Virus record (IMG/VR): IMGVR_UViG_3300032277_000043
Span: 1 to 33,374 of that record
Direction: 5' to 3' (one strand)
Source: a virus
Lineage: Duplodnaviria > Caudoviricetes
Length of the DNA stretch: 33,374 nt
Within the stretch, counting starts at the first letter, position 1, and every line of letters begins with the position of its first letter. Shown piece by piece: positions 3,745-10,341 of the stretch. The translations under genes and the position numbers were made by a program. The notes beneath the pieces are model-generated. The model saw nothing but the letters and a program-made list of their open reading frames with translations, had not been told where the DNA came from and made no database searches.

Positions 3745-3847
3745 CGTTGTTTTGTGGAAAGCTTATATCCGCTATCTCATGGTTGAGGTAGAATTGCGCG
3801 ACCTAAAGCATAGTCGGCTTGTCGATCATATCGATAGCCACTGTTGA
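3590..3847 (+). CDS. Rz1-like outer-membrane spanin lipoprotein
   Basis: Signal peptide with lipobox LSSC, Pro-rich segment (NPPAAPP); overlaps the 3' end of the Rz-like gene. Confidence 0.7.
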   Translation: MLRYRLVGIALLSVTLSSCETFTTRFLKTDCSPAAELTVKRNPPAAPPMTTDVVLWKAYIRYLMVEVELRDLKHSRLVDHIDSHC

Positions 3848-3865
3848 CGGGCCTCTATAGTTGAT

Positions 3866-4030
3866 TTAATCTATGGACTTTTCCGTCAGTAACTCAGCCT
3901 TACGCATTAGGCTGGAACGCAACACGTCCAACTCCCCGTCGTCGCCATTCTCGTTCGCAATTTTAACCATCGAAGCTGCCGCCGTTAGAAGCGTTGCCTT
4001 TTCGACTTTATGATATTCTTGCTCTGTCAT
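3866..4030 (-). CDS. 54-aa microprotein (array gene 9)
   Basis: MTEQEYHKVEKATLLTAAASMVKIANENGDDGELDVLRSSLMRKAELLTEKSID; preceded by GAGGCCCGC. Confidence 0.7.
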   Translation of the reverse strand: MTEQEYHKVEKATLLTAAASMVKIANENGDDGELDVLRSSLMRKAELLTEKSID

Positions 4031-4040
4031 ATTGCGGGCC

Positions 4041-4205
4041 TCAAATGCCGTAATCGGCAGGTTGAATTTTCAGAAAAATCGCCGCTGAAACCAAGACGCG
4101 CTTTTGCTGCTCAGGGTCGAGCGTTTGCATAACTGCGAGGATATTATTGAACGCCTCAAGGCTGTCGGCCACTGGCTTTTCGTCTGCTTTATCTTGCTGC
4201 TTCAT
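4041..4205 (-). CDS. 54-aa microprotein (array gene 8)
   Basis: MKQQDKADEKPVADSLEAFNNILAVMQTLDPEQQKRVLVSAAIFLKIQPADYGI; preceded by GAGGCCCGT; its stop overlaps the next motif. Confidence 0.7.
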   Translation of the reverse strand: MKQQDKADEKPVADSLEAFNNILAVMQTLDPEQQKRVLVSAAIFLKIQPADYGI

Positions 4206-4212
4206 ACGGGCC

Positions 4213-4425
4213 TCAAACGTTGTCTTTGATTAATGCGGAAATATCTTCTTTTGTGACCCTCGCGCCGGAGCATATTCTTAGCTGTCTTTTGGCGGCGTAA
4301 ATCCAGTCATCACTATCGTCTAGGCTGAAATCTGGATCGTGCATATTCTTGAGTGCATCAATCACCAATCGCTCAAGCTGTTTGGTGTATTCGTGCTGTA
4401 ACTGTTCTTGCGTCATCATTGTCAT
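4213..4425 (-). CDS. ~70-aa microprotein (array gene 7)
   Basis: Start placed after GGAGCCCCATCGC; TGA stop overlaps the next GAGG. Confidence 0.7.
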   Translation of the reverse strand: MTMMTQEQLQHEYTKQLERLVIDALKNMHDPDFSLDDSDDWIYAAKRQLRICSGARVTKEDISALIKDNV

Positions 4426-4441
4426 GCGATGGGGCTCCATT

Positions 4442-4627
4442 TTATAAATTTACACCGGTCAGTTTCGTGGCATCCAGCGTCCGTTTCATTATGCCAATCC
4501 TTCGCCGTAAATCAGCAACGGTTGCGGGCTGGTTTTCTTCCTCAATGATGTTTGAAAGCTCGTCATCAATATCTGCGAAAAGTGTGGCCAACTGTCCAAA
4601 ATGAAGGCGGGATGGTTCATCTTTCAT
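4442..4627 (-). CDS. 61-aa microprotein (array gene 6)
   Basis: ORF track; preceded by GAGGCCCCCGCA. Confidence 0.7.
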   Translation of the reverse strand: MKDEPSRLHFGQLATLFADIDDELSNIIEEENQPATVADLRRRIGIMKRTLDATKLTGVNL

Positions 4628-4645
4628 TGCGGGGGCCTCTACTGA

Positions 4646-4936
4646 CTAATATAAGCCTTCGGAATAGAGCGTGCGGAAATCTCCGCCACACCCCTCCCGA
4701 AAGTCGATAAATTGGCGAGCTTTCAAAGCGACATTCATCGCTTCTTCGCGATCCATGTAGACACCGTGTTGATCAATGAACCCTTGGTCAAACGTGATGC
4801 TCTTTCCGACCATACCTGCGGCTTGGATTTGCTTGTGCATGGTCGCATCGAAATGGCGCGGGCCGCAGAAAATCAAATGGCTACCCGGCTCACGGACCGC
4901 CGCGCAGACTACAATTCTTGTGGTTTCTTCAGTCAT
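4646..4936 (-). CDS. 96-aa conserved phage hypothetical protein (array gene 5)
   Basis: IVVCAA...GPRH...QGFIDQHG.YMDREEA...LYSE pattern, which I recall from many phage hypothetical proteins. Confidence 0.8.
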   Translation of the reverse strand: MTEETTRIVVCAAVREPGSHLIFCGPRHFDATMHKQIQAAGMVGKSITFDQGFIDQHGVYMDREEAMNVALKARQFIDFREGCGGDFRTLYSEGLY

Positions 4937-4949
4937 TTTTATCCGGCCT

Positions 4950-5105
4950 CTATTGTGTTTTCCAGTTATGATTGGCGGGCCGGTTGCCCGACGAGGGGTT
5001 TAACGGTGCTTTTTTACCCCTAAGTGCCAAGCCCGTATTCAACGACACTGCGACATTACCAAGGCTCTGAACGCCACCGCCAATCATAACTGGTTTCATT
5101 TTCAT
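4950..5105 (-). CDS. possible 51-aa ORF coincident with the structured RNA (array unit 4)
   Basis: GGAGCCCCGT-ATG start and TAG overlapping the next motif, but the sequence is constrained by RNA structure; translation uncertain. Confidence 0.35.
   Translation of the reverse strand: MKMKPVMIGGGVQSLGNVAVSLNTGLALRGKKAPLNPSSGNRPANHNWKTQ
4962..5093 (-). ncRNA. putative structured RNA, five-way junction (cloverleaf-like)
   Basis: Perfect 17-bp inverted repeat (4962-4978/5077-5093) enclosing four hairpins. G-U pairs and a GCAA tetraloop form only on the minus strand. Confidence 0.7.
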
Positions 5106-5120
5106 ACGGGGCTCCATTGA

Positions 5121-5411
5121 TTATGCGGCTGGCCGCCTTCTTAAGGCGCGTTCACGCACCTCTTTGGCGCGCTGCAATATTTCCTCGTCTTCGTAATCTG
5201 CTAGATAGTCATCTAGCTCCATATCAAAATCGTCGGTGCGCTTTTGCCTAATCTCTGACAACATCGCATCCAGTGTGTAGTTCGTTTTCGACATCCCATG
5301 CGTCACCTCGCAAAGAACGCATGAGAAGCGATAATCTACGTCTCCCACCCATGGCGAAATACGGCAGGCGAGCCAGTAGCGGAACTCATCGAACTTGCGT
5401 TTCAAATTCAT
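5121..5411 (-). CDS. 96-aa hypothetical protein (array gene 3)
   Basis: ORF track; preceded by GAGGCCGCT. Confidence 0.75.
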   Translation of the reverse strand: MNLKRKFDEFRYWLACRISPWVGDVDYRFSCVLCEVTHGMSKTNYTLDAMLSEIRQKRTDDFDMELDDYLADYEDEEILQRAKEVRERALRRRPAA

Positions 5412-5418
5412 AGCGGCC

Positions 5419-5574
5419 TCAAATGCTTTCTTGTTTTACTCTGGCTTTCCAGCACTTGGCGCACCGAAAAGTTACATCACGTTGGCCGCGCTCGTATGCG
5501 CTCAAATTTTGAAACTGAAACCTAGACATTTGCCAATCGTGCAATCCGAAAAAGCATAAGATTTTATGTCTCAT
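5419..5574 (-). CDS. 51-aa putative Zn-binding microprotein, DUF1660-like (array gene 2)
   Basis: MRHKILCFFGLHDW...FRCAKCWK; LCxxxxHxW...CxxC pattern; preceded by GGAGCCCCGC. Confidence 0.7.
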   Translation of the reverse strand: MRHKILCFFGLHDWQMSRFQFQNLSAYERGQRDVTFRCAKCWKARVKQESI

Positions 5575-5586
5575 CGTGCGGGGCTC

Positions 5587-5751
5587 CTATGACGCCAGCG
5601 CGGCACCAATAACCGCGACTAAAACAAACGTGATTGAGAGGTGGGCATATTGGCGTTTTGCGCCTTCACATTCGTGCTCTGCGGAAGCCAAAAGCGAACC
5701 GCCCGCGCCGATAGCGCCAATTGCCATTAGGATTGCATACTGTGGTTCCAT
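5587..5751 (-). CDS. 54-aa two-TM microprotein (array gene 1)
   Basis: MEPQYAILMAIGAIGAGGSLLASA...ITFVLVAVIGAALAS; start follows GGAGCCCGT. Confidence 0.65.
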   Translation of the reverse strand: MEPQYAILMAIGAIGAGGSLLASAEHECEGAKRQYAHLSITFVLVAVIGAALAS

Positions 5752-5764
5752 GATACGGGCTCCA

Positions 5765-5950
5765 TAACGTGCGGGCGGCGGGCTCTTCACCCCTTGTTGC
5801 AAGCCAGCCCAATGTTCACACCGAACAATACAGGCTGCATTTGTGCTCAGCGTTAGCATCTCCCTTGCGGGTGCTTTTCGCGCCGGGGGCTCGCAGGCCG
5901 TACCGGACCGCCCTCTCTGGGTATTCTTTCGACTCGACCCATAAGGGGCT
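5765..5950 (-). ncRNA. structured 5' leader or possible ncRNA
   Basis: About 190 nt without a convincing ORF. Hairpins UGGGU..ACCCA (with a GAAA loop), CCC-GCAA-GGG, and CAGCC..UGUUC/GAACA..GGCUG. Confidence 0.45.
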
Positions 5951-6016
5951 AAACCTCTTGTCTTAACTACTTATCAAAACCTCTTGTCAAAAGTCAATAC
6001 CTGTTCTAGTTATGAT
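5951..6016. promoter_or_regulatory. divergent promoter region with 12-bp direct repeat AAACCTCTTGTC (putative operator)
   Basis: Repeats at 5951-5962 and 5977-5988; TTGACA/TTGACT on the minus strand; TATGAT at 6011-6016 on the plus strand. Confidence 0.55.
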
Positions 6017-6026
6017 GGCGTGAAAA

Positions 6027-6605
6027 ATGCGAATTGGATATACGATAAAAATCAAATCGGGCGCGTCCGAGACCGAACAGCTCGAAGCGTTGGGGGACAT
6101 TGGTGCCGCCAAGGTTTTCAGCGAAAAGGTTTGGAAACGGAAACCAAAGCCCGAGGAAGACCCACGGCTAGAGCGCACCGAGTTGATCGACGTTCTCCGG
6201 CCCGGGGACGAACTGTGCGCCTACTCTGCCCTGCATTTAGCAAAGGATGCTGGCGATCTGTTTTCGGTACTAGCAGCAGTGACAGCGCAAAGCGCAAGCG
6301 TTTATGTGATTGATATGGATGAGAATTTTACTGGCAACGAAAGCCATGCAAGAATTGCTAAGGCCCTCTCCCGGGATAAGCGACACGCGCAAACAGCGAA
6401 TGCCCGGGCATCGGAAGGCAGAAAGAAAAACCGTGGCGGTCGGCCAAAAGCCCTTGGCGATTTGGACAAAGCCCAATGGGCACAATTCGACCGCGACTGG
6501 AAAGATGATGCTGTCAGCATTCCGCAGATGGCGTCGAAGTGGAATGTTTCAGAGGCAACGGTGAGCCGTAAGGCCAAGGCCCGGAAGCTCGGGAACAAAG
6601 CGTAG
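6027..6605 (+). CDS. resolvase/invertase-fold protein with C-terminal HTH, catalytic motifs degenerate
   Basis: IGY...QLEAL...KVFSEK...LRPGDEL...GGRPK...HTH layout of small serine recombinases. YxRVS reads YTIKI and DRLAR reads LHLAK. Confidence 0.8.
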   Translation: MRIGYTIKIKSGASETEQLEALGDIGAAKVFSEKVWKRKPKPEEDPRLERTELIDVLRPGDELCAYSALHLAKDAGDLFSVLAAVTAQSASVYVIDMDENFTGNESHARIAKALSRDKRHAQTANARASEGRKKNRGGRPKALGDLDKAQWAQFDRDWKDDAVSIPQMASKWNVSEATVSRKAKARKLGNKA

Positions 6606-7066: not shown

Positions 7067-7204
7067 ATGGCTGAAAACGCATTTAAATACGCGGCAAGCG
7101 CCGCCAAAAAACTTGGTGAGCAGCTTCGAAAGCTACCGTTGAAGGAGTTGATTGAAGACGAATTTCGCGAAGACTTGCGCGCGATTAGACACAAGACATC
7201 TTAG
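7067..7204 (+). CDS. 45-aa microprotein (not in ORF track)
   Basis: GAGGAC RBS; MAENAFKYAASAAKKLGEQLRKLPLKELIEDEFREDLRAIRHKTS. Confidence 0.65.
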   Translation: MAENAFKYAASAAKKLGEQLRKLPLKELIEDEFREDLRAIRHKTS

Positions 7205-7217
7205 GACCGTATTATAT

Positions 7218-7616
7218 ATGGACAAGGACGAGCTAATAGACGCGCTAGAAAACACCGACACCGCGAACATCGCGCTTGATGCTAAAATAGCAAAGCAGAT
7301 GGGTTTAATCCCAAGCGGCAGCGATTGGCAAAAAACTGGTGAATATACTTGGCATAAAAATTTGTCTTGGCGTTATGGAACGGCCACCTTTGATGATAGT
7401 TACCAACCAAAACCATTCACAAAATCAATAGACGCCGCCATAACGCTAATCCCTAAAGGCTCTTTATGGAGCGTGTGTGATATGGAGGATGGGCCATTTG
7501 CACAAATAATAAGGCCAATGGGCGATCAGGGCTTTTGTGGCGGATTAACTCACGCGGGCCACAAAGGCTCTGCCTCTATTGCAATTTGCATCGCCGCTCT
7601 AAAGGCCACAACGTAA
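7218..7616 (+). CDS. hypothetical phage protein, paralogue of 9946..10341
   Basis: Start moved to the ATG after AGGAC; FTKSIDAAITLIP...IAICIAALKA. Confidence 0.8.
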   Translation: MDKDELIDALENTDTANIALDAKIAKQMGLIPSGSDWQKTGEYTWHKNLSWRYGTATFDDSYQPKPFTKSIDAAITLIPKGSLWSVCDMEDGPFAQIIRPMGDQGFCGGLTHAGHKGSASIAICIAALKATT

Positions 7617-8390: not shown

Positions 8391-9083
8391 TTAAAGCTCA
8401 ACGCCAAGAGACACGACGGCGCGAGCGTCAGCAAATACCGCAGCAAAACCACCCAGGCCCAGGCCTTTTGTGTCTGAGTATTCACCCTGCAAATAGATCG
8501 GACCTTTTGAGACGCGCAAACCCGCGCCAAAGTCCTGATAATTTGCAGCGCCGGTATTGTGAGCGGCCTTCGCAAATGGTGTGATTGTTGTCTCTAGTGG
8601 ACCGTCAAAGTCACGGGATACAACACCCTCAACGCGCCAGTTGTCACCAGTGCTAAAAATGTAGTCAGGCGAGAAACGCCCAGTTACGGCAACATCAACA
8701 AGGCCGGTTTCCACTTCCGCTCCAAGATGCATTTCCAGAAAGTCAGTACCAGGAATGAATGAGCCAAAGAATTTCGAGTATGAAACACCGCCATCAACGG
8801 TCACGCCGTCGATCAATTCAGTGCGTACCCCAAGCGTCGAAGTCATATCGAATGACGTGAACGACGCAAGCTGCGACCGTGTTTGACCGCTAAGGTTAAC
8901 ATAAAAGATACCTTCGCTGGCGTGGATGTTTGCGTTGAACCCAGGCTCGCCGCCTGAGACTGAATAACCTCGCCATACGTTCTCGCTTGTGGCGGACGCA
9001 CCGCCGGATAGGTCAAGCGCATAGGCCGGTCCTGACACAAGCGCCAATGCGGCACCAAGGCAAGCTAATACTGTGAGTTTCAT
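8391..9083 (-). CDS. TorF/Gcw_chp-like putative outer-membrane beta-barrel porin
   Basis: Sec signal peptide (AYA/L), LSGGASATSENVWRGYSVS resembling the family N-terminal SDYxFRGxSQ motif, alternating amphipathic strands, terminal strand VVSLGVEL. Confidence 0.75.
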   Translation of the reverse strand: MKLTVLACLGAALALVSGPAYALDLSGGASATSENVWRGYSVSGGEPGFNANIHASEGIFYVNLSGQTRSQLASFTSFDMTSTLGVRTELIDGVTVDGGVSYSKFFGSFIPGTDFLEMHLGAEVETGLVDVAVTGRFSPDYIFSTGDNWRVEGVVSRDFDGPLETTITPFAKAAHNTGAANYQDFGAGLRVSKGPIYLQGEYSDTKGLGLGGFAAVFADARAVVSLGVEL

Positions 9084-9741: not shown

Positions 9742-9968
9742 TGGCTGGTGTCCTTTCTTGCTCGCGCTTCCTGTGCTTTCGCAATCAAGGCTTCCGTCCA
9801 CATTTCACCGATGGACTGCAACTCGTCATCACTTAAATCGCTAATATGGAATTTATGATTGCGGCTTGTTGCCAGAATGTAGTTTGGCAGCAATGGGCAA
9901 TCCACTTGAACCTCTTGCGTTACAACTTTAGTGACACGCAGCATTTTACTTATCCTCCCTTGCTTCAT
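9738..9968 (-). CDS. hypothetical protein
   Basis: ORF track; start probably near 9944. Confidence 0.65.
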   Translation of the reverse strand: MKQGRISKMLRVTKVVTQEVQVDCPLLPNYILATSRNHKFHISDLSDDELQSIGEMWTEALIAKAQEARARKDTSQ

Positions 9969-10341
9969 GAGCCTTTAGGGCTGCAATGCAGAGGGCTATT
10001 GCTGTGCTCTTGTGAGAGCTATAAAAATTATCAACATCTTTAGTCCAAGACTCACTTTCGTAGACAACCTCTGCGTGGCACCACAGAGAGACAGTATTAA
10101 TGTGCGCCCGATAATACTCTGAACCCTCAGGAATAGACGTTATCGCTGCGTCGATTGACTCTGTGTAACGAGGTAAGGGTTTGCAATAATCCTCTGCATT
10201 AGGATCGGTCACATGACCTGCGGTTTTCGGGCCAAACCATTTTGCATCGGGATCAATTTTTAGCCGGTATATCTCTAGGTCTATTTCCCTATCAGGCCCG
10301 TCTGCATTCTCCAGCTTTGTGATGAGGTCAGATAGGGTCAT
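9946..10341 (-). CDS. hypothetical phage protein, paralogue of 7218..7616
   Basis: LENADGPDREID...YTESIDAAITSIP...AIALCIAALKA. Confidence 0.8.
   Translation of the reverse strand: MTLSDLITKLENADGPDREIDLEIYRLKIDPDAKWFGPKTAGHVTDPNAEDYCKPLPRYTESIDAAITSIPEGSEYYRAHINTVSLWCHAEVVYESESWTKDVDNFYSSHKSTAIALCIAALKAHEAREDK

Follow-up and report, generated by a model that had tools for sequence, protein, structure and literature searches.

A candidate structured RNA on the minus strand of a phage genome presents, in the loop of one of its predicted hairpins, a word complementary to the tag that recurs at the ribosome-binding sites of the small genes around it, and this loop–tag complementarity is beyond chance at the stricter of the thresholds applied. 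The element occupies positions 4962–5093 of the window, that is, of the whole stretch of DNA analysed here, a phage record of 33,374 bp, and is entirely contained in ORF4 (g4; 4950–5105, minus strand), an open reading frame of 51 codons that carries a start tag of its own. The reading proposed below, which we hold with about as much confidence as doubt, is that the element is an antisense RNA processed from the transcript of the surrounding array, resembling the phage RNAs C4 and CI without belonging to their class, and gated by the translation of ORF4. That a discrete folded RNA is made from the element is plausible.

The phage record and its microprotein array

The record is linear and estimated to be 84% complete. 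Its gene content comprises a P22-type portal, a terminase, a capsid protein, ERF and YqaJ, and the nearest capsids among named phages are those of Pam5 and Pan3, at 47–48% identity. No tyrosine integrase was found in this incomplete record. Ten small leftward ORFs, with starts from 5751 to 3841, come in order after lysis-like genes: g1 (start 5751, 54 aa), g2 (5574, 51 aa), g3 (5411, 96 aa), g4, which is ORF4 (5105, 51 aa), g5 (4646–4936, start 4936, 96 aa), g6 (4627, 61 aa), g7 (4425, 70 aa), g8 (4205, 54 aa), g9 (4030, 54 aa) and g10 (3841, 12 aa). The gaps between them measure 7–24 nt, from which we infer that the array is co-transcribed. The product of g5 belongs to the T4 Arn.3 family (phrog_839), which is present in 1071 phage records, and stands alone in an otherwise orphan array. 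Among the nine array proteins scanned against Pfam and PHROG, none other than g5 has a family at E < 0.001, and no match to an antirepressor or to a replication-operon immunity family was obtained.

The ten starts (3841–5762, minus strand) are linked by a tag, GAG(G)CC(C/G), which begins 9–14 nt ahead of each of them. It was found upstream of 10/10 array starts against 0/40 other starts in the genome, a comparison in which the 40 starts were hand-picked and knowledge of the tag entered into the choice of two array starts, g7 and g10.

Some further observations concern the same record. The array contains a second inverted repeat, 4551–4565/4713–4727, with arms of 15 nt that are 93% complementary and 147 nt apart, which straddles the g5/g6 junction and its tag. 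In the early operon, positions 8391–9083 encode a secreted-looking protein of 230 aa with a weak Gcw_chp match (E 8e-4, below the cut-off), possibly an outer-membrane protein. The ORFs at 7152–7616 and 9946–10341, on opposite strands, have in common a '..IDAAIT.IP.G' stretch and an 'IAICIAALKA' end, a similarity of sequence which suggests that they are paralogues.

A candidate folded element inside ORF4

The element was predicted to form a five-way junction in which a closing stem, P0, encloses four hairpins. The 5' arm of P0 (5077–5093) and its 3' arm (4962–4978) are a perfect inverted repeat of 17 bp, as the sequence-only reading had described, and this repeat is the longest in the window; in 60 dinucleotide shuffles of the window the maximum was 15 bp, so that none (0/60) was as long. 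The four hairpins also pair as they had been written: H1 (5051–5076; 7 bp, of which three are G-U, and a 12-nt loop), H2 (5023–5049; 7 bp), H3 (4994–5021; 6 bp and a 16-nt A-rich loop) and H4 (4979–4992; 5 bp and a GCAA tetraloop), the last of which adjoins P0. The hairpin tiling is possible on the minus strand only, in agreement with the strand that had been assigned.

The stability of the individual helices is uneven. Mean pair probabilities at 37 °C are 0.98 for P0, a value that holds in contexts of 250–500 nt, 0.95 for H3 and 0.99 for H4, and only 0.30 and 0.40 for H1 and H2, which are marginal and drop further at lower temperature. P0, H3 and H4 of the fold originally drawn are firm, while H1 and H2 are minority folds and the whole is not the minimum-energy structure (−54.2 against −57.5 kcal/mol). 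An alternative helix competes with H1 and H2, and in the minimum-energy fold most of the seed described below is buried. The element as a whole folds with z = −4.5 relative to shuffles, a value owed to the inverted repeat alone, since interior shuffles that keep the stem fold equally well: the stability of the interior is ordinary, being matched by 633/1000 interior shuffles with the stem kept and by 744/1000 without it. The arrangement of the interior is less common. Four unbroken helices of 5–7 bp, 25 bp in total and joined by linkers of 0–1 nt, cover its 98 nt without remainder, and an exact four-hairpin tiling was found in 0/2000 interior shuffles and in 1/6052 sampled genomic windows (which may be the element itself), although the significance is overstated because this test was devised after the fold had been seen.

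The element had been called cloverleaf-like, a description that gives way to that of a five-way junction of ~130 nt. Neither a tRNA nor any tmRNA- or Y-RNA-like cloverleaf was detected in it by ARAGORN and Rfam: ARAGORN finds no tRNA, and at E cut-offs of 1 and of 10 no match was obtained with any of 4227 Rfam families. Likewise, the RF01695 (C4) model has no match at E up to 10 anywhere in the record. A retron msr-msd RNA was also considered. Such RNAs are expected next to a reverse transcriptase gene, and this candidate was rejected, no PF00078 match being present in the record.

ORF4 and its tag were overlooked in the sequence-only reading. The frame starts at its own tag, 12 nt ahead of the stem, and its stop codon overlaps the next tag. 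The search for relatives of its peptide returned one candidate, the peptide itself, and no Pfam or PHROG family was matched. Its codon score is −0.05, compared with +0.03 to +0.25 in seven array genes and −0.22 in g2, and the frame remains open in 301/2000 shuffles. As no relative of the peptide was returned, the codon score is weak and the frame stays open in some of the shuffles, ORF4 may serve to lead ribosomes across the RNA and not to make a product. Folding of the growing transcript predicts, in addition, that loop 2 pairs with the tag of ORF4 itself at 3/4 intermediate lengths and that it is released from this tag on arrival of the 3' arm.

Complementarity between loop 2 and the start tag

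Loop 2 together with the next U (5029–5042, minus strand) constitutes an antisense seed to the array tag. Within it, AUACGGGCUU (5038–5029) can form 10 bp, including one G-U, with the start tag of g1 (5762–5753), and likewise 10 bp with one G-U at g8 (4213–4204, within the tag at 4204–4214), where two bases of the AUG are included; both matches had been reported from the sequence, as had the partial pairing with the other copies of the tag. The remaining eight starts offer 5–8 bp: 8 bp at g10, 7 at g4 and g9, 6 at g2, g6 and g7, and 5 at g3 and g5, the tag of ORF4 (5104–5114) giving 7 bp contiguously or 10 bp with one bulge. A third 10-bp target, which had been missed, lies in the untranslated leader (5827–5836) and, according to the predicted fold, is base-paired there within a local hairpin. 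The three 10-bp sites are thus found within 0.8 kb, on the same strand and both upstream and downstream of the element. The UU of the seed pairs with both variants of the tag (GAGCCC and AGGCCC) at the cost of one wobble each, whereas a merely inverted copy of the tag would read UC or CU at this place.

How unusual this match is depends on the threshold. Out of 64,597 windows of 14 nt, 9 (0.014%) find three 10-bp partners in the array transcript; loop 2 accounts for four of these, and the other five correspond to two coding places with partners elsewhere in the array. The count rises to 245/64,597 (0.4%) at 9 bp and to 2,154/64,597 (3%) at 8 bp, so that the signal of loop 2 is threshold-dependent, and the three-site test was, like the tiling test, devised after the data were seen. 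Allowing for ~45 loop positions, the chance of such a match is estimated at a few per thousand at the strictest cut and at much more at the looser ones (9 and 8 bp). Nearly identical words stand at the tags of g1 and g8, which therefore do not count as independent matches. Among windows containing GGG or GGC, no place other than loop 2 can form 10 bp or more with two starts. Ranked against 32,043 windows that contain GG, loop 2 comes 645th in mean duplex energy across the ten starts and shares fourth place in summed helix length. Neither loop 1 nor loop 3 finds a 9-bp partner within the array.

In energetic terms, opening AUACGGGCU costs ~1.1 kcal/mol at 37 °C and 1.8 kcal/mol at 25 °C. The predicted net binding is best at g8 (−12.7 kcal/mol), followed by g1 (−9.6) and g4 (−9.3), and ranges from −2.6, at g5, to −6.7 kcal/mol over the five weak starts with 5–6 bp (g2, g3, g5, g6 and g7). 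A kissing interaction between loops 1 and 2 is predicted to be weak (−6.8 kcal/mol). The idea that one RNA co-regulates the whole array is wider than these results allow: strong pairing (7–10 bp) is confined to the leader, g1, g8, g10, g4 and g9, the five weak starts offer 5–6 bp, and the energy rank given above is unremarkable. On these predictions, we favour a graded targeting of about half the array over a uniform control of all its genes.

The leader, the divergent promoter and the invertase-like neighbour

The array is preceded by an untranslated leader of ~200 nt (5763–5960, minus strand) that contains further sense and antisense tag-like words and whose folding stability is not above that of shuffles (z −0.9). 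The sense tag occurs at 5893 and 5785 and an antisense word at about 5812–5801, alongside hairpins with GAAA or GCAA tetraloops; a hairpin word, CCCGCAAGG, is common to this leader and to that of G001, a relative discussed below. The leader may be an attenuator or an antiterminator. A relay through the leader was rejected as a candidate, given that holding 5836–5827 open left the fold of the g1 ribosome site unchanged.

Upstream of the leader, an inferred divergent promoter region (5950–6020) carries three 13-bp direct repeats, which resemble hix/gix half-sites. A strict sigma-70 scan found no promoter in this interval. The gene on the other side (6027–6605, plus strand) encodes a resolvase/invertase-like protein whose closest solved relative is Gin. 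When aligned to Gin, it lacks the catalytic Ser (GY.RVS) and the DRL.R motif, with Ile and LHLA in their places, and both features are absent from all 17 of its close relatives. This dead-invertase family consists of 17 proteins with 55–100% identity, and five representatives match at E < 1e-30. The protein is likely to be the repressor of the array promoter.

G001 (L004, L006) is the only relative with DNA context. Its spacer is 83% identical over 111 nt and its dead invertase lies at L004 4920–5579, with the promoter driving one small ORF and 12 tRNA genes; it has neither a tag array nor the element. Since G001 keeps the spacer and the invertase while facing tRNA genes instead of a tagged array, the dead-invertase repressor and the promoter look, from sequence comparison, like a portable module. 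The tag and the RNA are specific to the array described here, and the promoter and its likely repressor are not. G001 itself measures 73.9 kb and has two tRNA arrays on the same strand (L004 3060–4495 and 6947–8165, of 12 and 11 genes), between which the dead invertase and a small number of rightward genes are placed, as well as an integrase-like ORF (L004 988–2373) and a GroES-like ORF (L027), both labelled by reading the translations alone.

Searches for homologues

No homologue of the RNA element was recovered by pattern, blastn, DNA or protein-led searches. In viral contigs, the 17-nt loop pattern had three matches, all within unrelated long ORF regions, and the two arms with a variable gap had four matches of equal span, of which the one examined lies in a coding gene; two copies of the tag 147–177 nt apart occurred 31 times, in no case as an array of tagged starts. 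Searches with the region or the element by blastn against phages and plasmids gave no true match, and in a DNA search of 17 related records the sole match to the element, in G001, falls inside a gene.

Protein-led scans of viral contigs with g5, g3, g7 and the capsid brought no homologue of the element either. The g5 match L009 has no tag array, the g3-led scan gave a weak match, L071, and invertase-led scans returned one independent relative and two weak genome matches. Close relatives are known as protein records, with 81–94% identity in g7 and 55–77% in the invertase-like protein. The element is single in the record, without a second copy in phages, plasmids or viral contigs, and neither variants nor an inverted joint were seen in it in contigs of four microbial-mat DNA runs, of which three cover the element and in which assembly into contigs drops rare variants. 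The DNA analysed here may itself derive from one of these runs.

Comparison with known systems

The sequence-only reading had invoked P1 C4, P4 CI and N15 CA, the last of which also counts among the C4/CI-like phage antisense RNAs. The element shares several properties with this class: it lies inside the transcript that it putatively regulates, has sites both upstream and downstream, would recognise its targets through an unpaired loop and would act at a ribosome-binding site. In the literature searched, which lies largely outside subscription papers and includes PMC3203893, PMC4825925, PMC5320573, PMC2864571, PMC12197685, PMC12699233, PMC12612679 and PMC10969869, no phage RNA directed against a tag that recurs across many genes was found to be described. 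According to these sources, the transcript under the control of P4 CI is also the one from which this RNA is processed, and the sites with which the RNA pairs, seqA and seqC, lie on either side of it (PMC4825925), while C4 is an RNA of ~77 nt with three helices whose b' loop covers a ribosome-binding site (PMC5320573); c4 motifs are also covered in Additional File 1 of PMC2864571.

Membership does not follow from this likeness, as the element departs from the class in covariance model, size, number of helices, two-loop recognition and target genes. It is 132 nt long with five helices, in contrast to the ~77 nt and three helices of C4, has no match to RF01695, and recognises its targets through one seed loop rather than through a' plus b'. 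Its perfect 17-bp stem, which by inspection does not have the form of a 7-bp acceptor carrying a free RCCA, differs from a tRNA-like RNase P substrate. Furthermore, it is located in the middle of a ten-gene array, whereas C4 and CI are found in a leader before an antirepressor, and it has up to ten potential sites instead of two.

The tag, for its part, resembles the start-associated sequences (SAS) of cluster K phages. As described in the available text of PMC3203893, these are 13-bp asymmetric start tags that overlap the Shine-Dalgarno sequence, contain extra conserved C residues unable to pair with 16S rRNA and are situated a few bases before the starts of non-structural genes, often over the upstream stop codon; Pope et al. 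left open whether an RNA or a protein binds them, and the available parts of PMC3203893 and PMC12699233 describe no partner RNA. The array tag has the same character: it is short and asymmetric, it occupies the ribosome-binding position in front of genes that are non-structural, and its conserved bases extend past the Shine-Dalgarno sequence. It differs in belonging to another host group, in being another word than the cluster K consensus and in its extent, as SAS span half a genome and the array tag is limited to one 2-kb operon.

One reversed SAS copy is reported in Anaya and three other K1 phages (PMC3203893, available text). In Anaya, this single reversed start tag falls between genes 96 and 97, which are separated by 385 bp. 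Read on the same strand as the tagged genes, it is predicted to occupy the 10-nt loop of a hairpin at 59870–59882, in a region with z −4.7; the loop is also an anti-Shine-Dalgarno word. The tag-loop structure (Anaya 59779–59979, L070 480–680) is downstream of a separate 16-bp hairpin. From its predicted fold, this region is a candidate antisense RNA in a cultured phage. In ZoeJ the reversed tag merely serves a leftward gene as its ribosome site and was set aside, and no reversed start tag occurs in Pixie, so that an analogue is present in only one of the three cluster K genomes examined.

Two other kinds of element offer partial parallels. In the dual-function RNAs Gifsy-1 IsrK, Spot 42/SpfP and AzuCR, as far as the available text of PMC4825925 and PMC12612679 goes, the transcript is both a messenger and the source of a small RNA, with alternative folds and with a short ORF that overlaps or adjoins the pairing region, so that translation competes with pairing. 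IsrK activates one downstream ORF via ~30 nt of pairing (PMC4825925, available text), and the element differs in that its seed measures 7–10 nt and is aimed at a repeated tag; no sequence likeness to IsrK-type RNAs was found with Rfam. With Correia MITEs, as presented in the available text of PMC10969869, the element shares a length of ~130 bp, perfect terminal inverted repeats, co-transcription and the potential to be an RNase III substrate. It is set apart from them by the lack of any second copy among the sequences searched, by an ambiguous target duplication and by a loop that matches the tag of the surrounding operon itself.

Alternative explanations

In a first alternative, the element would act solely within its own mRNA, the stem dividing the operon between g3 and g5 as a processing site or as a switch coupled to translation and loop 2 pairing only with the tag of ORF4 during transcription, with no RNA released in trans. 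We consider this unlikely. The predicted pairing of loop 2 with the ORF4 tag until the 3' arm is made agrees with it, as do the exact fit of ORF4 between two tags and the stability of P0 in context (0.98), and the uncut element does belong to the mRNA; yet the distant sites at g1, g8 and the leader fit loop 2 better, with 10 contiguous bp, than does the tag of ORF4 (7 bp, or 10 when bulged), and a switch in cis has no need of the exact four-hairpin tiling. Three separate coincidences, namely the 17-bp repeat, the exact tiling and the three-site match, would have to be accepted if ORF4 were instead an ordinary microprotein gene whose tag is recognised by a protein or just marks a preferred ribosome site, all RNA features except the repeat being accidental. 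Little credence is given here to that reading, which accommodates the proper tag of ORF4, its neighbour-like length, its stop codon over the next tag, the ordinary folding energy of the interior, the unremarkable mean duplex energy of loop 2 and the cluster K tags, described without an RNA partner in the available text of PMC3203893 and PMC12699233; a peptide that has neither a relative nor a Pfam or PHROG family fits it poorly.

The element could alternatively be a MITE-like insert, its arms being terminal repeats and the flanking AAA a target duplication, in which case ORF4 would have arisen from a 7-codon minigene through an in-frame insertion, and the match of the loop would be due to chance or acquired later. 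The perfect 17-bp repeat falls in the size range of IS ends (~10–50 bp) and RNase III cleavage of co-transcribed Correia elements is reported, both according to the available text of PMC10969869. The length of the element is divisible by three, no homologue of ORF4 was found, its codon score is −0.05 and its frame stays open in 301/2000 shuffles, and the element has no homologue in related phages. On the other side, the record holds a single copy and no second one was found among plasmids, phages or viral contigs; the AAA found on both flanks lies within A-rich spacers in which it is frequent, and three 10-bp sites are left unexplained. We judge this origin quite unlikely. Highly improbable is a role at the DNA level, with the arms as binding or inversion sites of the invertase-like protein and the antisense word as an inverted gene junction. 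The arm at 4960–4978 does resemble 6004–6020, beside the invertase start, in 12/13 bases, the two form a 17-bp duplex with one G-U and one bulge that is the best in the genome, and the frame of ORF4 is also open when inverted. Against this, the runner-up duplex is only 1.2 kcal/mol weaker, 9/300 shuffled arms equal the arm in this respect and G001 differs at the arm-like bases; moreover, the arms are not among the sites that match the 12-bp repeat of the promoter at 9/12 or more, the catalytic Ser and DRL.R are missing throughout the 17 relatives, and the contigs of the four runs, three of them covering the element, contain no inverted joint, rare variants being dropped from contigs.

Proposed mechanism and implications

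In the reading that we prefer, that of an antisense RNA gated by ORF4, the array would be transcribed leftward from a promoter near 5990, likely repressed by the dead invertase. Ribosomes on ORF4 would unfold the element, and it is therefore proposed that poor translation of ORF4 is required for the RNA to accumulate. While the transcript is still being made, loop 2 would stay paired with the ORF4 tag until the 3' arm arrives, which would allow time for the stem to close. The 17-bp stem would then be cut by a double-strand RNase (e.g. RNase III), or would guard the ends after trimming, and the released species would be ~105–135 nt long. Through its pairing with the shared start tag, loop 2 would occlude ribosome-binding sites in trans, that of ORF4 included, and dampen translation of the array, strongly at the leader, g1, g8, g10, g9 and ORF4 and weakly at the remaining genes. 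Occlusion of the ORF4 tag would amount to a positive feedback, with a delayed shut-off following an early burst of accessory proteins. Repression is taken as the sign of the effect because the site covers the Shine-Dalgarno sequence and the start codon; on the present analysis, activation by the element may still be considered in its place.

A broader version of this proposal, put forward tentatively and with less conviction than the mechanism itself, holds that one self-encoded RNA silences a class of genes tagged at their ribosome sites, the element being one of the array's own cassettes, concealed in a tagged ORF, unfolded when that ORF is translated and serving as a translation-sensing timer, and that the same arrangement explains the SAS. 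If this is true, the timer runs a ten-gene accessory operon under a dead-invertase repressor, and the SAS of cluster K, unexplained since 2011, follow the same logic. For the phage described here, the putative case rests on one genome; in cluster K, the reversed tag that Anaya is predicted to display in a loop allows the SAS part to be tested in a cultured phage. The known C4/CI-type phage RNAs control one leader through two sites, and a single RNA that recognises the tag of many genes would make up a regulon run by RNA. The function of phage start-associated sequences would thereby receive an explanation open to test, and gating by translation of the ORF that contains it would let such an RNA sense ribosome activity in a compact way.
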